Shown in pieces: positions 203-15,992 of a stretch of DNA of 17,205 nucleotides. A program made the position numbers and the translations under genes. Source of the DNA: a virus (lineage: Duplodnaviria > Heunggongvirae > Uroviricota > Caudoviricetes); the IMG/VR virus record IMGVR_UViG_2548876701_000026; one strand, 5' to 3'. The first letter of the stretch is position 1; every line of letters starts with the position of its first letter. Below the pieces are notes generated by a model. The model searched no databases and was not told the origin of the DNA. It saw only the letters and a list, made by a program, of their open reading frames with translations.

Positions 203-931
203 TTAGAGTCCCTCCAGCTTGCCGGATTGGGCTTGCTTCAGGAGATGCTCTTGCTTCTGCTGGTCGGTGCCAGTGAAGGCAATAAGGATGCCTCGCAGTT
301 TATCGACTATCGCAGGCTTACCGAAGACCTCCAATCCCTTAGCGTTGAAGCGAAAGTTATAACCACCTGCTGAGAACTTCTGGTCTGACGGCTTAATGAT
401 ACGGAAGCAGTCGGAATACTTTGGATTTACAGACCACTCGTTACTGATTGGGTTCTTACGAAAGAGACCACGATGCTGAAGAAGTGCGGTCATTAGCTTC
501 TGAGCGGGTAGACCATAGGTTTTGCAGTAGTCGCCCCAAGTCACGCCTCGGCGGTTAGCGGACTGAATGGCTGCTCGCTTCTTCTGGTCTTCCAGTTGAA
601 GGACTCGACGCTCTAACGTCTGAATATGGTCGTAACACTTGGCGCGGAGGTGAACGGAATAGCCAGCGACCAGAATGAAAGTATGCTTACGGTCGAGACG
701 GTACAGAGGCTGCTGTTTCCCCTGCGCGTTTAGATAGACATCTTCAGTCACCCCGATATGACTGCTCAGTTTTGAGCACTGCTCAGTTTTGAGCGCGTTA
801 AGCTCCTCAGCCATATTGCGAATATCACGTAGGACATTTCGGTGCTCCTTGCCTGTCAGCTCAGCAATTTCAACTGAGGTCATGGAGACAAGCTGGTCGA
901 GGTTAATGACGCTGATTTCTTGTTGAGACAT
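203..931 (-). CDS. Rha-family phage regulatory protein with antirepressor (KilAC-like) C-terminal region
   Basis: N-terminal segment SVEIAELTGKEHRNVLRDIRNM matches the Rha-family signature as I remember it. AAGGAG-like RBS upstream of the ATG at 931. 242 aa. Confidence 0.7.
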   Translation of the reverse strand: MSQQEISVINLDQLVSMTSVEIAELTGKEHRNVLRDIRNMAEELNALKTEQCSKLSSHIGVTEDVYLNAQGKQQPLYRLDRKHTFILVAGYSVHLRAKCYDHIQTLERRVLQLEDQKKRAAIQSANRRGVTWGDYCKTYGLPAQKLMTALLQHRGLFRKNPISNEWSVNPKYSDCFRIIKPSDQKFSAGGYNFRFNAKGLEVFGKPAIVDKLRGILIAFTGTDQQKQEHLLKQAQSGKLEGL

Positions 932-1233
932 TTACGTGTACTCCTTTTGTTTGCACCCTGAAGTCGCACCCCCACTGACCTACTCAAGCCCCCACGTAAA
1001 GGGAGACCAGCAGGCAACAGGACGCAAACAGAATGACTTGAGGTAATTGGGGTTAGTGGTCTGCGATGACCATAGAGATGAAGGTTCGACAGCATGTCCG
1101 AGCGTGTGTGGTGATAGACTTAAGTCACGAGACCAAAGAACACAAAGGCTGACCAGAGGCTGGTGGCTAGCAAGCTAGCGTGGACCACGGTTTCTCGCTT
1201 GCCGTCTCTCAGGAGGTCAGAGGCGAGATATGG

Positions 1234-1255
1234 TCCCTATAGTGATAGTTTAGTC
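1234..1255 (-). promoter_or_regulatory. T7-class single-subunit RNA polymerase promoter-like element (copy 1), predicted start near 1237 reading leftward into the Rha gene
   Basis: Minus strand reads GACTAAACTATCACTATAGGGA; the core TCACTATAGGGA equals the -8..+4 core of the T7 consensus TAATACGACTCACTATAGGGAGA. Exact 21-nt direct repeat of 1793-1813. Confidence 0.5.
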
Positions 1256-1587
1256 AAACAGGAATGAACTTCGGAGAACCTGACGCGAAAGTGTTCAGTA
1301 CTTCCAGTTAGACCCGAAGTATGGAGAACCACATCATAGCGACCGTAGTATACTTCGGGCTGACAGGACTGGAGGCTGGACTTAAAGTTCTTCTTATTGG
1401 AATTGTGATAACACAATCCATAACAAGATGAACTCATGGTCTCCTCAAGCCTGCTGGTCAGGCTCAAAGCTCCAACCTCAGACACCACTGGTCTAACCTT
1501 TTTGAGTTTCCGCCTGTCCACAAATGGATGGCAGACCTCAGCAATGATGTCTTGGTTCTTCACAATCTCGCACACCGATGGTCGCAT
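1237..1587 (-). CDS. hypothetical protein (116 aa by ORF track; alternative start at 1437 with GAGGAG RBS gives 66 aa)
   Basis: ORF lies between promoter-like copies 2 and 1. Weak RBS at 1587, better RBS before the internal ATG at 1437. No motif recognised; could be spurious. Confidence 0.2.
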   Translation of the reverse strand: MRPSVCEIVKNQDIIAEVCHPFVDRRKLKKVRPVVSEVGALSLTSRLEETMSSSCYGLCYHNSNKKNFKSSLQSCQPEVYYGRYDVVLHTSGLTGSTEHFRVRFSEVHSCLTKLSL

Positions 1588-1790
1588 AGACGGATACTTC
1601 CGCTGCGGTCTGATGTTCTCCGCCTGTCAAAGGAGAGAGATTGCTACGTTAAAGGGAATGGTCTCAGGCCAAGGTGATTTAACACTAGGCTTATTGCGGA
1701 TGGTTTCCAATCGGTCCGCTACCGGAAGCCTGAGACTTAATGAATGTGTGGGTCGGTGGCTGTATTAAGCCCGGGGGGACTTAGGGTCTC

Positions 1791-1813
1791 TCCCCTATAG
1801 TGATAGTTTAGTC
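1791..1813 (-). promoter_or_regulatory. T7-class promoter-like element (copy 2), predicted start near 1795
   Basis: Minus strand reads GACTAAACTATCACTATAGGGGAGAGACC. Identical 21-mer to copy 1, and GGGGAGAGACC resembles the T7 initiating region GGGAGACC. Confidence 0.5.
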
Positions 1814-1820
1814 CCCCCCC
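1813..1820. repeat. C8/G8 homopolymer tract between promoter-like copies 3 and 2
   Basis: cccccccc at 1813-1820, read directly. Confidence 0.9.
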
Positions 1821-1839
1821 TTCCCCTATAGTGTGGGTT

Positions 1840-1840
<1 letters not shown>
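1821..1840 (-). promoter_or_regulatory. T7/SP6/K11-class promoter-like element (copy 3, divergent upstream half), immediately after the stop of the 1840-2499 gene
   Basis: Minus strand reads AAACCCACACTATAGGGGAA; CACACTATAGGG core. Confidence 0.35.
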
Positions 1841-4099
<2,259 letters not shown>

Positions 4100-4340: not shown

Positions 4341-5561
4341 GTGTCGATCAAGAGCCAAGCATACTTATTTAAGAGAAAAGATGGGATCTGGATGTTTCAG
4401 ATTTTTGTTCCTAAATACTTACGTCATCTTTACCCTTACAAGTTGTGGAGAAAAAGCACATCTACACGAGATCTGAATGAGGCGAGAAGATTCAGAAACC
4501 ATCTATTATTAGAATGGGAGGAACTAAAGCGGAAACATAATCCTGATAACCCCGAAAGGAGGTTACAACAAGCTATTGAATCCTTACATTCAGAGGCAAG
4601 GGCCAATAAAAACACGCAAAGAGCCGTAAAACGCGGTTATGCATCGCCTTCCCTATGCTTAATACGTGACGAATACGCCGAATGCTACAGAGAGCGTCGT
4701 TCATACTCAACACTACAGAAATCAGCAAGGGCCGTTGAGCTATTTTTACAAAGCATTCAGAAAGATGATATTCATATTGAGAAAATAGGCAGACGGCTTG
4801 TAACAGTATTCTTAGATGACCAGAAGCAACGAGGAGCAGCCGATCAATCTCGTCAAAACTGGCTTACATGCTTAGGATCGCTCTATGAATTTGCTAAACG
4901 CCGTTATGACGGAATACCAGACAGTAACCCTTTTCACGGTCATAATCTCGAAGCACGTCGCACAATCGAGAGTTATCAACCGTTTACACCTGAACAAATG
5001 CAAAAGCTACTTGATGCAGCGGAGCCGGAGATCAGAAATATTATTTTAATGGGCTTGTTTTCAGGATGCAGATTAGACGAACTGGCAAGTCTGAAAAAGT
5101 CAGAGGTTGTAACTGTGGAAGGAATACGCTGTTTTTATATCAGCAAAAGTAAGACTAAAGCAGGGATCAGGCACGTTCCGATACATTCGAGACTATCGAT
5201 TATTGTCGATGAATATTTAAATCATAATTATGGTGAATATTTGTTCCCTCACTCGAACAAAGTAAAAAGAATCGACGGTAAGAAAGGCCCGTTCTATTCT
5301 CAAGCGTTCTCACGTTTACGTCGTAGCGTCTTGCCAATCGCTACAAATAGACAATGCTTTCACAGCTTGCGCGGGATGTTTATCACTTGTCTTGATCGTG
5401 CCGGAGTGCCTGAACAGCGGATCGGTGCCATTACCGGACATACAGAGCAGAGAGCTAAAACAGAAGCCTTTCGCACCTACTCACAAGGGGCAAGCATTCC
5501 AGAATTAGCTGAATATGTAGAATTAGTAAGATATGAATTAAATATTGATTTTAAGGCTTAA
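4341..5561 (+). CDS. int: tyrosine site-specific recombinase / phage integrase (406 aa, GTG start)
   Basis: R in GCRLDELASL, H-x-x-R in HSLRGMFITCL, GHTEQ...AFRTYSQ with the Tyr. N-terminus YLFKRKDGIWMFQIFVP parallels the other integrase. AGAGGA RBS 8 nt upstream of GTG. Confidence 0.85.
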   Translation: MSIKSQAYLFKRKDGIWMFQIFVPKYLRHLYPYKLWRKSTSTRDLNEARRFRNHLLLEWEELKRKHNPDNPERRLQQAIESLHSEARANKNTQRAVKRGYASPSLCLIRDEYAECYRERRSYSTLQKSARAVELFLQSIQKDDIHIEKIGRRLVTVFLDDQKQRGAADQSRQNWLTCLGSLYEFAKRRYDGIPDSNPFHGHNLEARRTIESYQPFTPEQMQKLLDAAEPEIRNIILMGLFSGCRLDELASLKKSEVVTVEGIRCFYISKSKTKAGIRHVPIHSRLSIIVDEYLNHNYGEYLFPHSNKVKRIDGKKGPFYSQAFSRLRRSVLPIATNRQCFHSLRGMFITCLDRAGVPEQRIGAITGHTEQRAKTEAFRTYSQGASIPELAEYVELVRYELNIDFKA

Positions 5562-5668: not shown

Positions 5669-7510
5669 TTAACTTGGTGCTTGCCCAGACAGAGCCGCCA
5701 ACGTGAAACTACGTTCAAAATCTTGTTGGATACTTCCCACTTTGTAATCGAGGTATGATCCAAGCTGACTACCATCAGGAGCGATATTCACATCAACCTT
5801 ACTTTCTGGCACGTTTACGACAATGCTTGGCGCATACGTCATAGATGGGGTAGTGTTCAGATCACGGCTAACGTTCTCTTTCAGGGATTGCACGTTATCG
5901 GACGGGCTTGAATAGTTCTGAATTGCAGTTCCGCCAGTCGTTGGCTTGTCTTCCGTGCCAGGGATAGGCGATAAGCCTAAAGCACTACGACCCCAATCAA
6001 CCATGCCGCCTACAAACGAATCCTTATAATACATACCGGACGAATCAAGGTTTTCATGTTTGTTCTCTGGATTTATATTCTGGTATGCAGCAGTAAGCCA
6101 CGATACAGCACCAGCAAAGGCGCTCATCATTTCAGCCGTTGAGCTTCCAAGTTCTTTAAACAGAGGATTGAGATCTTTCAACATTTGCGCCCACTCTTCA
6201 CCAGCCTGAGCGTCGAACTCTTCACCGAATCCCGTCATGATAGCTTTCTTACTACCTTCCCAGGCCATATTCATATTAGCCTGTACAGCTTGCAGACGTT
6301 CAGCAGCGTCAAGATCCGCTTGCGTATAGGTGGCATTGGCTTTTTGCATCTTAACGATGGTTTTATTTAGCTCTTCACCGTTACGACTGAAAGCACCACG
6401 GAAATATTGTAAATCATTTCCAAGGTCTTCAAGGATGTGACCCTGCTCCTGATCAGAGAGTCCACGGCGTTCTCCTTCTTTCACTACAGCGCCCAGGAAA
6501 CCTAATGGATCAGTCTGGAAACCTTTAATCTGTTCAGGACTCCAACCATATTTATTAAGGATGTTATCGACGGCACCATTACCGCCAGCCCAGCGACCTT
6601 TCTTAGCGTCCCATTTGGTATTCCCTACGGATTCACCTAAACGCTCTTGAACGTCTTTAAGGTTGTCTTGACGTTGGTCTACGGAACTATCGACACCGTG
6701 TTCTAAGCCGTACTGATTAAGTGCTAACAGGGCGTTAGTGTTTACGTTGACAGCCTTTGCCTTGCGGTTAGTGTCTGTGATCTTGCTTGCCTGATCGGTT
6801 ACGGTATTGAATATCGCAGCACCGCCGAGAGTGGCAGCAGTGAGAGCGGCACCGCCCACCATTGCACCTACACCACCGCCTATATGACCGCCTTTAAGCT
6901 GTTTAGCCATATGTGGATATTTACCGCCATCAGCCGCCACCTGGCGAGCTTTTACAGCAGCCGCACGGCGTTCTAACGTGATACGATCACGGATCAGGTG
7001 ATTCATCTTAGCCTGACTAATAGCGCCTTTCTCATACGCTGCCGTTTGTGCTTTGATGTATTGCAACGTTTTGTAGTATTGGGCGGAGTCCATACCGTCG
7101 CCCATACGCCCTTTCTTAATCCCTTCAAGCTGTCTGAAAGCTTGCTGGCGCTTAATCTCTGCTTTCTCTGCTATTGTCGCTTTAGCGCGGATCTGTTTAT
7201 CGGCAGCTATAGCGGCTTTAGCCTTCGCTTTAGCTTCTGCCTTTGCCACCTTATCAGCGTTCTTCTTATCGGTTTGAGCTTGCTTGTCTGACGCTTTGGC
7301 ATCAGTTTTAGCCTGTGCAGCTTTACGAGCCTTTACCAGATCATGAGCCTCGTCTATAGCTCGTTTAGCCTTCTTCCCTTTCAATGTTGGATTGGTTAGG
7401 TTTTCCATTTCTTTCTGAAATTTCTTCCCTGCGTCCCTTGCTTTCTGTAATGATGCAAAATCAACTTTAAATACAACCTTGTTTGTTAAGGTTGAGATGT
7501 TTAAATCCAT
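5669..7510 (-). CDS. large coiled-coil / glycine-zipper protein, tape-measure-like virion protein (613 aa)
   Basis: Lys/Ala/Glu-rich heptad-like N-terminal third (KVAKAEAKAKAKAAIAADKQIRAKA), hydrophobic Gly-zipper GGHIGGGVGAMVGGAALTAATLGGAAIF, long low-complexity C-terminus. AAGGA RBS upstream. Product assignment by composition only. Confidence 0.45.
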   Translation of the reverse strand: MDLNISTLTNKVVFKVDFASLQKARDAGKKFQKEMENLTNPTLKGKKAKRAIDEAHDLVKARKAAQAKTDAKASDKQAQTDKKNADKVAKAEAKAKAKAAIAADKQIRAKATIAEKAEIKRQQAFRQLEGIKKGRMGDGMDSAQYYKTLQYIKAQTAAYEKGAISQAKMNHLIRDRITLERRAAAVKARQVAADGGKYPHMAKQLKGGHIGGGVGAMVGGAALTAATLGGAAIFNTVTDQASKITDTNRKAKAVNVNTNALLALNQYGLEHGVDSSVDQRQDNLKDVQERLGESVGNTKWDAKKGRWAGGNGAVDNILNKYGWSPEQIKGFQTDPLGFLGAVVKEGERRGLSDQEQGHILEDLGNDLQYFRGAFSRNGEELNKTIVKMQKANATYTQADLDAAERLQAVQANMNMAWEGSKKAIMTGFGEEFDAQAGEEWAQMLKDLNPLFKELGSSTAEMMSAFAGAVSWLTAAYQNINPENKHENLDSSGMYYKDSFVGGMVDWGRSALGLSPIPGTEDKPTTGGTAIQNYSSPSDNVQSLKENVSRDLNTTPSMTYAPSIVVNVPESKVDVNIAPDGSQLGSYLDYKVGSIQQDFERSFTLAALSGQAPS

Positions 7511-7888: not shown

Positions 7889-8917
7889 TTACGCTACTGT
7901 GATCTGTACAGTGAAGCCTACGCCGTGGTTTACAACCATCTGGCTATTCTCAGTAACTACGTTTACAGCGTCGTTACGTGCTGGGCTAAACGCATAGCTG
8001 TAATATTCAGCCGCGCCAGAATTCAGCAGGTCGAACGTTGAAGAAGGAGCGCCGAAAATGTTCTGATAGACGTTAGAGCCTTTAGCGAACTTCGGAACAG
8101 CAACCGCATCAGAAGTCATATGAGCCAGCAGCAGCGGATCAGTAACTTTAACGATATCGATGTTAGTCCCAGGAATAGTGAAGGTAGTCACACCTGGCAG
8201 CAGGGAGCGCACGCTATAAACGATGTTTGCGTCATCGGTAGGGCTTGCATACTGGAACGCGTTAACCATGCCAGCACTGTAACGGATAGCGTTGAAAGCA
8301 GCAGGTTTACAGAATACAACGATACGTTCTACAGCAGCCGCCTGGCTTTGTGCTTTAGTAATAACGTCTGTATGCATCTGATCGAATTGCTGGAACACCA
8401 TAGAAGGCGTGGTGCTTGATGCGTCGATGGTTGCAGTCATCGGAACAACACTAAACAGATCGCCCCACTGGATCAGCACATCATCAGTTTTAGGGGTGTA
8501 AGTGCGACCAGAGAACAGGGAAGCAGCCAGCACGCTTTCTTTAGTACGCTGGAAAGCAATGTGGTGCTTAGCAACATATTCCGCGTAGATATCTGTCAGA
8601 GTTTCTTCAACGGTAGCGCCTGGTTTACGTTTGCCTTGCACGTCTTGCGGCTTAATCATATCTTCACGCAGGAAGTAGGGGATCTCTACTAAAAATTCTT
8701 TACCCTGTTCACGTTTAGTCACGTTATGTTCAGAAGAGAAACGAGAGGTTTCTTTGTTGAACAGAGATTCGTTAGTTTCCACCAGTTGGCTAACAGCCAC
8801 TTTATGAGAACTCACACCTACCGGATCAGTAAAGTCGAGAGAAGTTAACAGGAAGTTGCGAGAGTCGTGCAGACTAAACAGCGGAGCCAGATCGACGGAT
8901 TCATTACCAATAATCAT
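7889..8917 (-). CDS. putative major capsid protein, lambda gpE-like (342 aa)
   Basis: Size and synteny (about 120-aa decoration-like gene immediately upstream, terminator downstream). Loose colinear resemblance to lambda gpE as I recall it (segments IAFQRTKESVLAASLFSGRTYT and ERIVVFCKPAAFNAIRYS). AAAGGAA RBS. Not verified by search. Confidence 0.45.
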   Translation of the reverse strand: MIIGNESVDLAPLFSLHDSRNFLLTSLDFTDPVGVSSHKVAVSQLVETNESLFNKETSRFSSEHNVTKREQGKEFLVEIPYFLREDMIKPQDVQGKRKPGATVEETLTDIYAEYVAKHHIAFQRTKESVLAASLFSGRTYTPKTDDVLIQWGDLFSVVPMTATIDASSTTPSMVFQQFDQMHTDVITKAQSQAAAVERIVVFCKPAAFNAIRYSAGMVNAFQYASPTDDANIVYSVRSLLPGVTTFTIPGTNIDIVKVTDPLLLAHMTSDAVAVPKFAKGSNVYQNIFGAPSSTFDLLNSGAAEYYSYAFSPARNDAVNVVTENSQMVVNHGVGFTVQITVA

Positions 8918-9309: not shown

Positions 9310-9525
9310 TTAATAGTTTCCTTTTTTGGATTGTTTGATTTGTTCTGCTTTTGCTTTAATCAGATCCTGCATAGTAGGTTTCTGTTCATCAGCAGACTTA
9401 AAAAGCTTATCACAATGTTTTTTCAATTCTGTGGGAGTGATCCCCAGCATATAAGCCGTAGCATTGAATGTTTCATCAGTGATAACCAATTCTTCGTTAC
9501 CATTCTTTAGAATGAGATTTTGCAT
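9310..9525 (-). CDS. hypothetical small protein (71 aa), first gene of the capsid-like cluster
   Basis: ORF with stop abutting the start of the decoration-like gene. No motif recognised. Confidence 0.4.
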   Translation of the reverse strand: MQNLILKNGNEELVITDETFNATAYMLGITPTELKKHCDKLFKSADEQKPTMQDLIKAKAEQIKQSKKGNY

Positions 9526-9578
9526 TATTGCTTTACCTTTATTCCTAACAGTCTTGTTTAGTGCTGATAAAAATAAAA

Positions 9579-9599
9579 CCGGAAGGGGAAAGCTTCCGG
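9579..9599 (-). terminator. intrinsic terminator (minus-strand orientation)
   Basis: ccggaag / cttccgg form a 7-bp GC-rich stem with a 7-nt loop; on the minus strand it is followed by UUUUAUUUUUAU (plus 9565-9577). Confidence 0.55.
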
Positions 9600-10115
9600 C
9601 TTTATGAATACAACATTTGAAGGATGTTATAGAGTGTTACTAAATCGCAGTTTATATGAACTTAAAGAGGAGGACATATAAGAATAAGATTGCTTATTGT
9701 TATATACCCTTGAGGGGTGAATAACAGGCTTACAGGGAGTAGGCGCTTAGGAGGTCGCCCCCTTTGGAGAGGAATCTATAAACCTGTTATTCGTGCGACG
9801 GCTAATCGCTGTCTTTCACAATGTGGATGCATCGATCAGACTTTCAGGAATCACCTATTAACTTTCAAACCTTTTGGATTCTCATTTTAATAGGAGGCGG
9901 TGCCGAGATGATTTCGGGGATCATCCACGCTTTCGCGTTCTAAGATTGGCACCTTAATAAACACCAACAAACAAAAACATATTCAGCTTTAAGCTTAGTA
10001 GAAAACTGTTGTCAAGAAACAGATATACACCGTTATTTGTTTATACGGGGTTTATAGACACTGTAAACAGTGTTTTTAGAAAGTGTTTCATGCTTCGCAG
10101 TTGGTTAAAAAGATG

Positions 10116-10137
10116 AGGGGCCAAATCCGTAGCCCCT
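10116..10137 (-). terminator. candidate intrinsic terminator downstream of the small-gene operon
   Basis: aggggc / gcccct form a 6-bp stem with a 10-nt loop; the minus strand then reads CAUCUUUUUAACC. Confidence 0.35.
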
Positions 10138-10403
10138 GCATTCTTAAGACACAATTTTGATAAAGCAATAAGGAAAATAAAATGAAACTATTAACGAGGG
10201 AAACAATTTCTAAAAAATCACTGTAAAGGGAAAGCGGGATAGGTTAGATAGGGCGCGCCCCCTTGAGGTCTACCCCGCTTTCGTGTAGGATTAGAATCGG
10301 GAGAAGGATTAACGCCAGCTAACACATATTTTCGATTCAAAACCCCACATTTATTATTATAACATTTCTGTTAGTAAAAGTCAATAGGTAAATGCAATTA
10401 TTT

Positions 10404-10613
10404 TCAACTTTTTTCGGTTGTCAGTTCCCACTCACCAAATACGCAATTACCATCTAAAACGATTGTTTGATCGTTACCGTTATCATCGGTTACGTGCATC
10501 AGGCGGGTGTAAGTGTCGAGTAAGCCGGTATACACTTTACCTACTGTGAAACAATTACCCGCTTTCCCTTCTTCTGTGAGCGCCAGAAGGCGCACACGTT
10601 TAGTTTTTGTCAT
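10404..10613 (-). CDS. hypothetical small protein (69 aa), last gene of the operon
   Basis: Start overlaps the stop of the upstream gene (TAATG). No motif recognised. Confidence 0.45.
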   Translation of the reverse strand: MTKTKRVRLLALTEEGKAGNCFTVGKVYTGLLDTYTRLMHVTDDNGNDQTIVLDGNCVFGEWELTTEKS

Positions 10614-12158: not shown

Positions 12159-12824
12159 TTAAAATGGTATTGAGTCATAGATTTCACTTTCTTTTCTCAG
12201 GGCTATCATCAGTGCATTAAAAGCATCATCTTCAAGAATTATCCTCTTCGAGGTCAGTGCACGTTTTATAAAATTTTCTGTTTCTTCTTGCATAGGCTTT
12301 TGGCTGTCTATGGAAATAAGCCATGTAAAAAGATCAGATTGTTCCGTGATTTCTGCCTGTGTTTCCTGCTCAATAGAGTGTGTCGCTTCTAACGGTTCCT
12401 GTGTTTCAGGTGCAGGCTGTTCTACGTTTACAGAGGTTTTTACGTCTTCCGGTGGTGTGATGTGTGCATCTGTAAAGGGTAATGCTTTATAGAGTGATGT
12501 TTGCCCGTCCCGTGCCTCTACAGAAAGAACACCCATATCAATAAACATATTTATAATATTACGCACCTGACGATCACTAACCATTCCAATATTAGCTAAT
12601 GTTTTTTGATTGGCGTAACATTCTTGCCCTTGTTCATTGAACCCAGCTACGTAACTGTAGATTTCAACGGCTGGAAGTGTCGCGGTGTATTCCTTACCTG
12701 ACGGTGAGAACCACTTTTTAAACATCTTCAGCCATTGTTCAACTACTACATATGTTTGTTTACTATCTTTCTTATTGAGGCATTGCGCTTTTGCTTCGGC
12801 AATTGTTTTGGTGTTTTGGTTCAT
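12159..12824 (-). CDS. winged-helix DNA-binding protein resembling phage/plasmid replication initiator or replisome-organizer N-terminal domains (221 aa)
   Basis: Segment YSYVAGFNEQGQECYANQKTLANIGMVSDRQVRNIINMFIDMGVL fits the pattern (Y..N...G.CY.SQ.TLA...G.S...V.R.I..L...G.I) seen in Rep/replisome-organizer HTH domains; acidic linker follows. AAAGGAGG RBS. Confidence 0.5.
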   Translation of the reverse strand: MNQNTKTIAEAKAQCLNKKDSKQTYVVVEQWLKMFKKWFSPSGKEYTATLPAVEIYSYVAGFNEQGQECYANQKTLANIGMVSDRQVRNIINMFIDMGVLSVEARDGQTSLYKALPFTDAHITPPEDVKTSVNVEQPAPETQEPLEATHSIEQETQAEITEQSDLFTWLISIDSQKPMQEETENFIKRALTSKRIILEDDAFNALMIALRKESEIYDSIPF

Positions 12825-12948
12825 TTAGTTCCTCCTTTGTAAGGACTGTAATTAGTAATTCATTAACAAGTTTTGGAATTGATTTCCCTTCTGCCTTTGC
12901 ACGATTTAACAACGCGTTATAAGTTGCAGAATCAAAATTAATATTCAT
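12772..12948 (-). CDS. small DNA-binding-like protein, possibly ribbon-helix-helix (58 aa; below the ORF-track cutoff)
   Basis: ATG at 12948 with AAGGAG RBS at 8-nt spacing. Hand translation MNINFDSATYNALLNRAKAEGKSIPKLVNELLITVLTKEEL... shows a strand-helix-helix pattern. Overlaps the start of the Rep-like gene by about 50 nt. Confidence 0.4.
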   Translation of the reverse strand: MNINFDSATYNALLNRAKAEGKSIPKLVNELLITVLTKEELNEPKHQNNCRSKSAMPQ

Positions 12949-12971
12949 TTGGTTTTCTCCTTCTCCTGTTA

Positions 12972-13154
12972 TTATTCTTTCTCTGCTTCTGCCTTACGCA
13001 GTTCATCAATAATTTTTAGTGCATCGTCAAAGCATTTTTCACGCTCTGGATAACCACAGCGCCGCGCTGTGTTCCTGTTCATCCTTACTTGATGTCGTGT
13101 TAGCTCACCTTTTTTAAATGCCTCTACGACGTGTTCCGGTGTATACCATTTCAT
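12972..13154 (-). CDS. hypothetical small basic protein (60 aa from the ATG at 13154; ORF track begins at a GTG at 13187)
   Basis: AAGGAG RBS 6 nt upstream of the ATG (MKWYTPEHVV...). First gene of the leftward operon. Confidence 0.45.
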   Translation of the reverse strand: MKWYTPEHVVEAFKKGELTRHQVRMNRNTARRCGYPEREKCFDDALKIIDELRKAEAEKE

Positions 13155-13769
13155 AAAAAACTCCTTATTTAGATAAAAGAAAAACACACCTTGCAGCCTG
13201 ACGGCTCAAAGTGCAGTGTTCTGTGATTTGATTATTTAGATGGAGAGAGATGTTTCTCCCCTCCCTACTTACAATACTACATAACGGCGGCTTTGTCAAC
13301 CCTCTCTTATAAAAAACTTGATCATTTTCAATTTCTTATAATTTTTCTTAGCTTTTTGTGCTGCCTACTCTGGTACAATTCTTCCCTGTTGCCTAAAACG
13401 CTCTCAATCGCACTCTGACGGGGGTTTTGATAAAAACAATACATTCCCTTATGTAGAGGTTGTTTATCTCGTCAGAGGCTTATTTAAGGGGCTTATTTTT
13501 GATTTATCAGATGATGGAAAGATGGTGGATAGATAAACTCTGATTTCAGACATCTTATAAAATACCTGTAAAGCTCCTCAGAAGCTCTATAACGAGCTAA
13601 TCTATTACCGCTAAGTGTTTCCCTACCTTATATACGTTTAGCTCGCCTACGGCTTGATTTAAGCGGTAGAAACTTATTTAACCTTCAACTACTAAAACCA
13701 TTCTTTCTTTTTTGTTTGTTGTTGGTTGTTGTCTGTGTCTATGTGCTAACATCGCTAACGCGTAGCACA

Positions 13770-14035
13770 CAAGGTTATTGCACTCGTCAGAGTATTGCAC
13801 AATAGATTTTCTCTTAAATAGATTGATGATCGTTAGATTGGCGTAAGCCTCATCAATGGAACTATTGAAGCGCACAGCGCATAGACACTAACAACCATTC
13901 GCTTACGCTCAGGTTATTGCACAAGTAAATTTCAATCGTTAGATGGTAGTTAGTTAATTATCGTTCTGCGCACAGCGCAAGACTATTAGCCATACGCAAG
14001 CCGTAGGCTATTTGCACATAGTAGATTACATATTC
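13770..14035. repeat. degenerate tandem repeats of about 100 bp carrying recurring TTGCACA, CGTTAGAT and CGCACAGCGCA motifs
   Basis: cgcacagcgca at 13871-13881 and 13969-13979; cgttagat at 13831 and 13937; aggttattgcac at 13772 and 13911. Confidence 0.5.
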
Positions 14036-14918
14036 GTTGTGAGCGGAAAGCGAACATAGATCAGCTAACTACTAACAAAAAACAAAAAACAAAAACTATC
14101 TGTTATGACAAGCATCAGTCTAACTTGTGCAAGGTTCTGGCGAATGCCAATAGATTAAGGGATAGTCGAAGACTCCCTAACGGGTATCCCTATAATTATT
14201 CTTTAAAAGATAAAAGAATTTATAAAAGATAGTTTAATTGTAGTTTAATTATAGTATTGTAGGAACTCATTTCCTGGGTAGGTAGGAAACCCGCACTATA
14301 CGGTAAAAAGTGCTTGCATGTCAACTTATATTATGTTAATTGCGGCTTTAGATCGTCTAAGTGATTGTTAAAAGTAACTTTTAAAGTTAACAATTGATCA
14401 ATCAAACTTAAAAATTCCCGGCTTTAGAAAAGCATAAGTATTGTGCACACTGGTAAGTGTCTTGCACAGAAAAAGGTGTAAAAAATGTCTAAAGCCCTTT
14501 AGATAAAAATGATACCTTTATACATGCGCTAATAGCGCGCATAACAATAACCTACTAACAACTAACTAAAAAGTAAGAAGATGTTGTTATGATTAGTGTA
14601 TCGCTCAACGCTCACATCTATCTCTGATCTATAAATTGGTAACTGTCTAACAACAACAAACAACTATTACATGCAAAACAGCCTTACGGCTGCATAGAGA
14701 TGATTGGCTAACCTTCGGTTGCTACGCATAGCCATATCTATGAGAAGATAAAAGAGATTTAAAGGTTAGTTTGTTGTTGATCTAACTAACATTCGCTATA
14801 CGCTCATACAATCTACATTACACATTAACTATCAAACTACAATCTAACGATATATAGAATCTATATCCACTCATTATCATTCGTGCAATGATCACATTGA
14901 TAGTTCGCTATACGCTCA
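13898..14918 (+). repeat. four same-orientation iteron-like direct repeats TCGCT-N2/3-ACGCTCA; candidate origin or recombinase-binding region
   Basis: Copies at 13898-13911, 14601-14614, 14792-14806 and 14904-14918, inside a 2.25-kb AT-rich region with no credible ORF. Confidence 0.5.
14074..14094. repeat. (AACAAAA)3 heptanucleotide tandem repeat
   Basis: Read directly. Confidence 0.85.
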
Positions 14919-15440
14919 CCTCTATTATGTGCAATGGCTTTTCAGGCAACGCGTTAGCGTATTCTTGCGAATGCCTGATCTCCAAAGCCGGAATTAAACA
15001 GCAAGAATATCTCGTGTAAATCATAGAATATTCATAGTTTATCCCTATGTAATTCCATACTAAAAATTCAATGAAAAGTAGCTTAAAAGAGCAATGTTAG
15101 CTTTCTTCACTTTTACATTATCATCAGCAAAGCCTTATGTAATGCGGCATATAGCGCATCACTGCAAAATTGTTGCTCAATAAACGTTCTATCATTTATT
15201 GAACAAGTTTCCTTTAATGCAACAAAAAATTATTTTTTCAAAATAAACACACTATTTAATAGCTTGCTAATTTTACCAAAATGTAACTACATGATTCTCA
15301 TGCAAGACGTGTAGTGATAAAGCAGGCTAAATCACCACACTAAAAACCTTCGAATTTCGTAGTGAAAAAAGTCCTTTACACACCTAATCAACACGATCAA
15401 TAATCACTACACACAAATCAACACAGAAGGAATAAAGAAA

Positions 15441-15992
15441 ATGGCTAATATTGGATACATTAGGGTATCGACTGTGCAACAAAACACAGACCGTCAATTA
15501 GCTGGAGTAGCTCTTGATAAAGTCTTTGAAGATAAAGCGTCAGGCAAGAATACCCAGCGCCCACAGTTTGAGGCAATGATGAACTATGTGCGGGAAGGTG
15601 ATGTTTTGCATGTTCACAGTATTGATCGACTTTGCCGTAATACAGCCGACCTACTGGCAACGGTTGAGCAATTAACAGAGCGCGGCGTGTCTGTGCATTT
15701 CCATAAAGAAGACTTTAAGACAGGGAAGAACTCTCCCGCAGGGAATATGATGCTCACAGTGCTTGCAGCAGTGGCACAAATGGAACGTGAAATGATGCTT
15801 GAGCGCCAGCGTGAGGGGATCGCCGCAGCTAAGGCCGCTGGACGTATAGCAAAACGTGGTAATGGAAAAGCAATTGATCGAGCGGGAATTGCTGCCGCTC
15901 TCGCGAATGGTGGATCAATTCGGAGCGTAGCAAAAGATTTCAGTGTCAGCACACAAACGGTGCAACGTATCAAGAAAGAGCAGGAAGCGTAA
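15441..15992 (+). CDS. small serine recombinase of the resolvase/invertase family (183 aa)
   Basis: N-terminus MANIGYIRVSTVQQNTDRQ with the catalytic Ser in the GY(I/A)RVS-T motif; DRLCRN; C-terminal HTH GSIRSVAKDFSVSTQTVQRI. Compares well with Hin/Gin/TnpR as I recall them. AAGGA RBS. Confidence 0.85.
   Translation: MANIGYIRVSTVQQNTDRQLAGVALDKVFEDKASGKNTQRPQFEAMMNYVREGDVLHVHSIDRLCRNTADLLATVEQLTERGVSVHFHKEDFKTGKNSPAGNMMLTVLAAVAQMEREMMLERQREGIAAAKAAGRIAKRGNGKAIDRAGIAAALANGGSIRSVAKDFSVSTQTVQRIKKEQEA

Follow-up and report, generated by a model that had tools for sequence, protein, structure and literature searches.

The window analysed here, a stretch of 17,205 nucleotides deposited as IMG/VR virus record IMGVR_UViG_2548876701_000026, is a chromosomal island of Escherichia coli beside tRNA-Gly (an identical copy in strain EH2252 has the tRNA just past the window end). 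Positions 13188-15440 form a gene-free region which, from comparison with related islands, is quite probably the composite non-coding control region of a satellite-like element, with a lambda-O-style replication origin at 14195-14304. The region is a composite mosaic and not a single element, and its short putative origin goes together with a Rep-like protein encoded to its left. An earlier note on this DNA, made from the letters only, had described the region as free of open reading frames (ORFs), AT-rich and dense in repeats, and had proposed an iteron-type origin for the Rep-like protein, a packaging or resolution site, or long non-coding RNAs. The first of these proposals is supported for the region and fails for the repeats chosen as iterons, as described below.

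The origin reading is carried by the pairing between the Rep-like protein and a family of direct repeats. In total, 33 loci of the island family were fetched, one of which (L001) is the sequence of the window itself as it occurs in strain EH2252, and Rep could be typed in 27 of them. Its N-terminal DNA-binding domain (DBD) comes in five unrelated types (T1 to T5), and each type has its own direct-repeat family in the variable stretch right of ~14250 (Table 1). The pairing is found in 26 of the 27 typed loci, the remaining one being the type-4 locus L025, where no copy was detectable. These iterons stand 22-24 bp apart, with up to 4-5 copies per locus, and cross-occurrence is essentially absent besides stacked cassettes; the T1 family, for example, is missing from loci with other Rep types save for the stacked cassettes in L012. 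Moreover, whatever the Rep type, the 70 bp directly left of the cognate iterons are 83-91% AT in all but one of the 26 loci where such an iteron was detectable, the exception being L008 with 76%. The pairing also survives recombination, since L005 combines a type-3 Rep with type-3 iterons, yet its left module is 91.5% identical to that of the window, which has a type-1 Rep. None of the GGAAnnCAyTTCC repeats that belong to the window's T1 protein was listed in the earlier note. The TCGCT..ACGCTCA repeats that it took for iterons are spaced irregularly (192 and 112 bp) and do not co-vary with Rep type, and a block private to 76 genomes holds three of the five.

Relatives with a T1 Rep have two iterons (L027 and L029) or four at 22-23 bp spacing (L002, L006 and L017). 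Counting phased direct repeats of ~17-23 bp, at least three of which were taken as the mark of an array, gives 4-5 copies in relatives and one intact plus one decayed copy in the window. Two or three iteron sets in tandem were observed in L012, L026 and L022, the first of which has type-4, type-1 and type-2 sets with a single Rep; these are stacked or leftover origin cassettes. In L002, remnants of other iteron types follow its own set. The commonest Rep type is T4, with nine of the 27 loci (L011-L016, L019, L025 and L026).

Concerning the protein itself, the window's Rep resembles replication-initiator and O-like families of PHROG (E 7e-6 to 4e-3) as well as DnaD-like ones, consistent with an origin-binding initiator. 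Phased dyad repeats, an AT-rich neighbour and a co-varying two-domain protein of PHROG-initiator-like character suggest an origin anatomy of the lambda O type. As in lambda ori/O and in iteron plasmids, four to five phased dyad repeats (in the island relatives) stand by an AT-rich unwinding region and would be bound by the N-terminus of a two-domain initiator; unlike lambda ori, the island origin would lie ~1.4 kb away from rep instead of within the gene, DnaA boxes are absent, and the window has one intact iteron. In the mechanism that we propose, the N-terminal winged helix of Rep would bind the dyad-bearing direct repeats (GGAAnnCAyTTCC), about two helical turns apart, binding would open the neighbouring 87%-AT stretch, and the conserved C-terminal domain would recruit the helicase or replisome of the host or of a helper phage. 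Sequence comparison shows the matching of Rep and iteron types, the AT-rich neighbour, the mosaic of blocks and the phage chimeras described below, whereas replication, binding, cleavage and dependence on a helper are inferred from it. The origin module, i.e. Rep DBD plus iterons, is exchanged as a cassette between islands, presumably because virulent Stephanstirmvirinae phages, the likely helpers, carry chimeric nucleases with the same DBDs, which would find and cut the iterons.

These nucleases came from a protein search with Rep, which found a 332-aa protein of Escherichia phage muut, and from tblastn, which placed homologues in four virulent Stephanstirmvirinae phages of ~146-151 kb, namely muut, inny, Mt1B1_P17 and BI-EHEC. 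Each is a three-part chimera in which an island-type DBD is followed by a second DBD, of type T1, and by a putative nuclease domain of ~100 aa at the C-terminus (Table 1). The phage chimera genes are 94-99.6% identical to island DNA, and since this identity extends into the small gene preceding island rep, the exchange between island and phage is recent and physical. The C-terminal domain matches the phrog_681 endonuclease family (E 2e-18) and MUG113 (25.0 bits, cutoff 22.3), and reaches 17.4 bits for T5orf172, below the cutoff of 20; both Pfam families belong to the GIY-YIG nuclease superfamily. No PDB sequence matches this domain. The two DBDs of the phage homologue match PHROG initiator-type families (E 5e-17 to 4e-13) and HTH_36 (E 4e-15), and AlphaFold models both as winged helices (pLDDT 71-92). 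Fold matches of the modelled DBD are winged-helix proteins, including 4pql, presumably the N-terminal domain of a staphylococcal RepA, and 4ro3 (TM-score to target 0.45-0.60), generic winged helices matching as well.

Judged from these domains, the phage chimeras would find and cut the island iterons, which suggests an origin under phage attack. Iteron arrays were found neither in 50,697 phage records nor in the whole muut genome. The chimera is an accessory gene, as it is carried by four phages compared with ~60 Escherichia phage records that have a related head protein. It should be noted that no chimera has a T4 domain, T4 being the only one of the four multi-locus types that is unmatched; this fits an escape type, though the sample of typed loci is small and non-random.

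The closest known parallel is the non-coding region of PLE, a Vibrio cholerae satellite, which measures 2.7-3 kb and holds four repeat families, of which only the RepA iterons are needed for replication (PMC7145576, PMC7567579). Some isolates of phage ICP1 carry Odn, a RepA-like DBD (42% identical) joined to a T5orf172 nuclease, which cuts the PLE origin and needs the iterons to do so; it is thought to have driven swapping of the RepA/origin module and restructuring of the iterons in PLE (PMC8263062). Like the island, PLE is a compact integrative satellite (18 kb, compared with ~13 kb here) in which a leftward gene cluster flanks a large ORF-free region (2.7-3 kb, compared with 1.5-2.7 kb) with several repeat families, only one of them being the initiator's iterons, and in which the swappable N-terminal DBD of the initiator co-varies with the origin (PMC8263062). 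The differences are considerable. The two elements have no detectable sequence relationship, the island initiator matches HTH_36 and O-like/DnaD-like profiles with no Pfam RepA_N match, and its iterons are dyads of ~13-19 bp at 22-24 bp spacing, whereas those of PLE are semi-palindromes of ~30 bp. The E. coli islands have five exchangeable origin types and encode their own capsid-protein and tape-measure homologues, their host is E. coli and their likely helpers are Stephanstirmvirinae, and they are known from sequence alone.

Likewise, the E. coli phage chimeras are accessory proteins of virulent phages which fuse a DBD of satellite-initiator type to a predicted nuclease domain of the GIY-YIG superfamily (T5orf172-type), as does Odn (Gp88), and the cognate iteron arrays again lie in the satellite and not in the phage. 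Unlike Odn, they have two tandem DBDs, a constant T1 and a variable T2, T3 or T5, their DBD identity to the satellite is 83-100% rather than 42%, the small satellite gene upstream was co-captured, the muut genome holds five single T1-like dyads, and cleavage by the chimera is predicted only.

A further link to these phages comes from the structural genes of the island. Its capsid protein (7889-8917) aligns from end to end, at 24-26% identity, with the major head proteins of Phapecoctavirus-type phages of ~142-155 kb, and its only phage relatives among the 50,697 records are this group, its Klebsiella relatives and Pseudomonas phages. The 613-aa protein (5669-7510) and the tape measure protein of muut are 27% identical in a stretch of 350 aa (E 3e-38). 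No terminase, portal or further tail genes were seen in the window. Stephanstirmvirinae are thus likely to be the helpers. A wider proposal, whose chances we regard as evenly balanced, is that E. coli has its own version of the arms race between PLE and ICP1. A satellite family not described before, which ~13% of complete genomes contain, would parasitise virulent Stephanstirmvirinae (phAPEC8/phi92-like); in some of these phages the chimeras would be the counterattack, as origin-directed nucleases of dual specificity put together from captured Rep DBDs, and the islands would escape by swapping cassettes among the five types or by shedding iterons, as in the lineage of the window. A literature search, which did not cover all journals, found no earlier description of the island family or of the phage chimeras.

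So far, PLE and ICP1 are the only pair for which a non-coding hub with an origin, and a nuclease directed at it, have been worked out. If the reading is correct, the same logic in E. coli would mean that conflict between satellites and phages leads to it generally and that it is no peculiarity of Vibrio. It would also offer a tractable model host for such conflict, and would account for a conserved "empty" stretch of 1.5-2.7 kb that hundreds of E. coli genomes contain, strains of O26, O104:H4 and ST131 among them. There is also a practical side, since Phapecoctavirus and Justusliebigvirus are candidates for phage therapy and biocontrol, and an interfering island together with a neutralising phage gene would affect host-range prediction and cocktail design.

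Several observations weigh against an origin at 14195-14304 that is attacked in this way. The match of the window's Rep to HTH_36 (22.3 bits) lies below the cutoff of 25, and RefSeq names some Rep alleles "transcriptional regulator". No DnaA box (TTWTNCACA) occurs in the window and no integration host factor (IHF) site (WATCAANNNNTTR) in the region. With only one intact iteron, the origin of the window itself may be weak or dead; the depletion could be decay, or escape from the T1 domain that is common to all four phage chimeras. The structure model gives the nuclease domain of the chimera a pLDDT of only ~30. Furthermore, muut carries five single T1-like dyads GGCGGGAAACCAyTTCCCGCC (GGCGGGAAACCATTTCCCGCC dyads), compared with 0.14 expected for the core pattern; a single base separates this core from a perfect T1 iteron. 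All five stand between the start of an early gene on the - strand and a sigma-70-like promoter ahead of it. The T1 domain may therefore have a target within the phage as well, which keeps a regulatory role of the protein alive; the dyads could be due to chance, be a natural target of this domain, or be a case of mimicry. Finally, the origin covers only ~110 of the 2253 bp and leaves ~1.3 kb (13577-14194 and 14305-15013) unexplained. Apart from these points, the frequent TTGCACA motif was considered as a DnaA box, and was rejected as unconvincing (7-8 of 9 positions match by eye).

How the rest of the region is built was derived from pairwise comparison and from an alignment of eight loci, later extended to more than 30. 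The left part (13188-13576) is conserved in every member at no less than 71-80% identity, with internal deletions in L004 and L007. The following block, 13577 to ~14250, is restricted to one sequence class found in 352 E. coli genomes; in the L008-type class it is replaced by unrelated sequence without CTAAC enrichment, and no motif common to both mid-block classes was found, the CTAAC enrichment being class-specific. A short stretch right of ~14250 differs sharply among loci, 14290-15013 is private to 76 genomes with one copy each, 15014-15236 is universal across the family, and 15237-15440 travels with the recombinase gene and is missing from loci that have a gene for a secreted protein in its place. 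The filler that occupies most of the private block holds three copies of TCGCTnnACGCTCA, a near-palindrome and short motifs inverted with respect to 13700-14100. A large palindrome around the origin was considered and rejected, 13690-14200 and the reverse complement of 14456-15013 being only weakly similar (score 44, compared with 23 +/- 3.5 for shuffled sequence).

The repeats listed in the earlier note exist and exceed chance. With at most one mismatch, TCGCTNNACGCTCA has four matches, compared with 0.04 expected; together with a copy with a one-nucleotide spacer, the TCGCT..ACGCTCA family numbers five with spacers of 1-2 nt, one being inverted, which corrects the count of four, the N2/3 spacing and the uniform orientation claimed before. 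Some of the coordinates were off by 0-1 nt. The tandem units of about 100 bp (families D4, D9 and D15 have spacings of 122, 106 and 98 bp, and CGCACAGCGCA stands at 13871 and 13969) are real repeat units, because unit-sized indels separate strains. The (AACAAAA)3 repeat is present at 14074-14095, with a copy number that differs among strains, as are an inverted repeat (GTTAGTT at 14765 pairing with AACTAAC at 14784) and the near-palindrome ATGCGCTAATAGCGCGCAT (14524-14542). The many CTAAC pentamers were rightly noted, 20 of the 52 window matches falling within 13746-15100 (1.36 kb) and only 1 of 200 shuffles reaching the window total, and TTGCACA has 10 matches (six in the region) compared with 3.05 expected. 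The units of the repeat module contain TTGCACA boxes, ATCGTTAGATKG, a TGCGCACAGCGCA palindrome and TCGCT..CGCTCA motifs. The module also has (TTGTT)n and (AACAAAA)n tracts that complement each other, a perfect inverted repeat of 12 bp whose arms lie far apart (13645-13656 / 13997-14008) and, at 14159-14190, an element rich in dyads that ends in TATAAT (14191-14196).

These parts outside the origin could be mainly evolutionary debris, that is, scars and leftovers of minisatellite-like repeats and of origin cassettes exchanged again and again, hardly functional in themselves. Stacked iteron sets and other-type remnants in the loci named above speak for this view, as do the private indels of the window lineage (157 bp and 60 bp), a repeat-unit number that varies among strains, and a gap length that ranges from 1.5 to 2.7 kb. 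We nevertheless hold it to be rather doubtful, since 13968-14060 and 14120-14158 are invariant in 12 alleles that differ by 20-25% nearby, the adjoining dyad element (14159-14191) varies in its central loop only, and both the left block and block C1 are conserved family-wide. It is unlikely, moreover, that a mobile element so compact would give up 12-20% of its length to debris in all its members.

As for transcribed functions, coding ones find little room. The 2253 bp have a GC content of 0.356, lower than elsewhere in the window (0.441) and than in the coding part of the island (0.419), and the sole ORF of at least 50 aa is a 65-aa GTG ORF (13678-13875, - strand) that indels destroy in other alleles. 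No coding sequence (CDS) is annotated by RefSeq in the gap of any fetched locus, which agrees with the ORF-free character first assigned to the region. Six-frame tblastn between classes, which looked for hidden small genes, matched all frames, in DNA-conserved blocks only; the left control block is therefore not coding.

The remaining transcribed possibility is that 13577-14194 and/or 14305-15013 are long structured non-coding RNAs regulating the island or its helper phage, with the origin as a small neighbour. PLE satellites do express abundant intergenic non-coding RNAs (PMC7567579; 10.1101/2022.04.08.487710). On the + strand, 13630-14200 folds with a z-score of -4.1, no shuffle folding as well, and the alignment fold of the repeat module has a z-score of ~-8. 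The stem of a hairpin at ~13745-13772 is kept through two double changes (GTGCTA/TAGCAC and GCGTTA/TAACGC), other small hairpins keep their stems while their loops vary, and terminator-like hairpins occupy a similar place in two sequence classes. Yet the alignment signal is equal on both strands, hence it was read as DNA dyads, such as those bound by dimeric proteins. The whole window has no Rfam 15 match at the gathering score. A + strand RNA marked by GNRA and UUCG loops was considered, and dropped when a systematic count gave no + strand enrichment of GNRA/UNCG-capped hairpins. Whole units of ~100 bp are gained and lost, the module gives way to unrelated sequence in the other class, and the universal blocks lack a convincing conserved fold (block C1, z-score -0.9 on both strands; left block, sparse structures with -3.6 on the + and -2.3 on the - strand). 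There is no conserved promoter either, and sigma-70-like matches are fewer than in shuffled sequence (7 compared with 10.6 in window 12800-15700, 4 with 5.8 in L002 5900-7700, and 2 with 7.2 in L008 2680-4760); such scarcity in spite of AT-richness may reflect selection against stray transcription near the origin. Long non-coding RNA, the last proposal of the earlier note, is thus neither supported nor refuted, and we keep it as an unlikely rival.

A different objection concerns the Rep-like protein, which could be a transcription regulator, with the iterons as its operator array and the region as purely divergent promoter and operator. To the RefSeq naming (for some alleles also "LexA family transcriptional regulator"), the window protein's lone and sub-threshold HTH_36 match and the muut dyads in promoter/5'UTR regions of five early genes, one may add that the fold matches include MarR and Fur winged helices. 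Against this stand 4-5 helically phased direct copies beside 83-91% AT sequence and ~1 kb from the operon promoter, which is the layout of an origin, PHROG matches that are all replication initiators, O-like proteins or DnaD-like loaders, and a separate conserved C-terminal domain on an acidic linker, as in initiators. The phage chimeras, for their part, fit the PLE/Odn precedent (PMC8263062). A regulator without an origin is for these reasons very unlikely.

Least probable is a cos or pac site read by a helper-phage terminase: pac and cosB regions typically consist of non-coding DNA with many repeats, and the island, having no terminase gene in the window, must borrow one, yet near and distant blastn of the region found no similarity to the 50,697 phage records or to the whole muut genome, where motifs of the island's non-coding region occur at chance level, and the second gap (9525-10404), which has no phage DNA similarity either, holds the sole near-match to lambda cosN, a weak 12-mer (10/12) at 9752-9763, so that no cos or pac assignment by homology can be made and the packaging site proposed before is not borne out.

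Table 1. Positions of features in the window, iteron types of the island family and related genes and sites in phages (positions with a locus number refer to that locus).
Feature	Position	Strand	Description
Rep-like protein	12159-12824	-	N-terminal winged-helix DBD of type T1, acidic linker, conserved C-terminal domain
5' leader of leftward operon	13188-13300	-	Operon of the 60-aa gene, the Rep-like gene and others
Leftward-operon promoter, sigma-70-like	-35 TTGACA 13299-13294; -10 TATTGT 13276-13271	-	Promoter scan
Upstream control block	13301-13576		In every family member; 74-80% identity to most divergent loci
Terminator-like hairpin and T-run	13569-13589	-	Also in L002; different hairpin at similar relative place in L008
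Lineage-class repeat module	13577-14194		2-3 degenerate units of ~100 bp
TCGCT-T-ACGCTCA copy	13899		N1 spacer; 13898 in the earlier note
TCGCTNNACGCTCA, inverted copy	14040-14053	inverted	Pattern scan
Putative DNA-unwinding element	14195-14260		87% AT over the 70 bp that precede the first iteron
Single intact T1 iteron, AGGAACTCATTTCCTGGGTAGGT	14261-14283	+	Core GGAACTCATTTCC; unique in window
Decayed second iteron, AGGAAACCCGCACTATACGGT	14284-14304	+	Right half-site TTCC lost compared with AGGAAACCACTTCCACGGT in L002
157-bp indel in filler	14297-14453		Strong promoter-like site 14324-14295 (-)
Lineage-specific filler	14305-15013		Between iterons and block C1; replaces ~230 bp of other members
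TCGCTNNACGCTCA copies	14601, 14793, 14905	+	Pattern scan
Block C1	15014-15236		Universally conserved; kept where downstream cargo gene differs
Recombinase promoter block with res-like sites	15237-15440	+	GTGTAGTGAT 15309-15318; perfect inverse 15403-15412; related copies 15330-15340, 15359-15369
Recombinase promoter	15375-15404	+	TTTACA-18-AATAAT
T1 iteron			GGAAnnCAyTTCC
T2 iteron			TGTAAY..CGTTAC
T3 iteron			TAACA..TCTGT
T4 iteron			TGACCTACCCCCTAGCTCACTA
T5 iteron			TTGATAGGGGTATCA
muut chimera, gp094	L034:4635-5633		First DBD T5, 99% over 122 aa; second T1, 83-90%
inny chimera, inny_184	L035:1501-2604		First DBD T2, 92% over 125 aa; second T1, 83-90%
Mt1B1_P17 chimera, gp053	L036:1522-2508		First DBD T3, 100% over 92 aa; second T1, 83-90%
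BI-EHEC chimera, unannotated ORF	L037		First DBD T3, 93-96%; second T1, 83-90%
muut T1-like dyads	66500, 67359, 69368, 71677, 72256 (L040 16500-22270)		

Concerning the left end of the region, the -35 of the leftward promoter is invariant in the eight-locus alignment, and an equivalent promoter, TTGACA-17-(TAAAGT/AATAAT), stands at the matching place in L002 and L008. In the same alignment, the leader hairpin AGCC-TGAC-GGCT (~13195-13207) keeps its stem while its loop varies. The upstream control block includes a nearly invariant 33-mer, GGTTTTGATAAAAACAATACATTCCCTTATGTA (13423-13455), which contains a TACAT-N6-ATGTA dyad, and from its conservation the block would be protein-binding regulatory DNA. 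At its right end, the terminator-like hairpin would keep leftward transcripts that come in from the side of the origin from running into the operon promoter; the evidence for this is weak, and the count of such hairpins is not above shuffle expectation.

At the right end, block C1 is probably regulatory DNA as well. It is present in L004 and L006, which are without recombinase, and CCYTRTGTAAT occurs in it twice (~15043 and ~15133) and once in the left block (~13445). The recombinase is a 183-aa serine recombinase with a Resolvase domain (PF00239, E 5e-39) that falls below the cutoffs of all NCBIfam models, and it could be a resolvase or equally an invertase. An invertible switch was considered and rejected: no inverted variants were seen among the strains examined, and some members have no recombinase. 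The cluster of four related sites of 10-11 nt, with its inverted pair, plausibly resembles a res site. Like the res sites of Tn3-family and plasmid serine resolvases, it consists of short inverted and direct repeats directly upstream of the recombinase gene and over its promoter. The resolution site suggested for the whole region is therefore plausible for the ~130 bp that directly precede this gene and not for the remainder. In L004 (8068-8619) and L006 (5322-5873), the 552-bp slot of the recombinase holds, on the opposite strand, the gene of a 183-aa protein with a signal-peptide-like N-terminus, and because of this replacement the right end can be regarded as a cargo slot.

Regarding distribution, megablast of the 2253-bp region found it in 712 of 5426 complete E. 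coli genomes (~13%), nearly always on the chromosome. The fetched loci are inserted at tRNA-Gly, tRNA-Thr or tRNA-Leu and share a single gene order: integrase, the 613-aa tape-measure-like protein, the major capsid protein, small ORFs, a gap of ~0.9 kb, further small ORFs, the Rep-like helix-turn-helix protein, one or two tiny genes, the CDS-free gap of 1.5-2.7 kb, which is kept in all 33, and the serine recombinase or other cargo. The island appears to be a phage-satellite-like element of ~13 kb. A scan of genome contigs with the 60-aa neighbour protein for relatives outside Escherichia found only Escherichia and two contigs labelled as a metagenome-assembled genome ("MAG: Bacillota bacterium", L023 and L024). 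These carry the E. coli island at 74-92% DNA identity and are most likely misbinned or contaminating Escherichia DNA. With relatives confined to Escherichia, there is no deep phylogenetic depth for covariation analysis.

Left of the island integrase (4341-5561), the window contains a larger second integrase (2492-4099), a DUF4145 protein (1840-2499) and a Rha-family regulator (203-931), beyond which IS66 copies follow in strain EH2252; 203-4099 is probably a separate element inserted in tandem. A final point of notice is the second conserved ORF-poor gap (9525-10404, ~0.9 kb), which has no phage or Rfam match. Its - strand shows a strong promoter (TTGACT..TATAAT, ~10383-10355) and, just before a 71-aa gene, a terminator-like hairpin with a T-run (~9600-9565), and the gap could be a long leader or a non-coding RNA.

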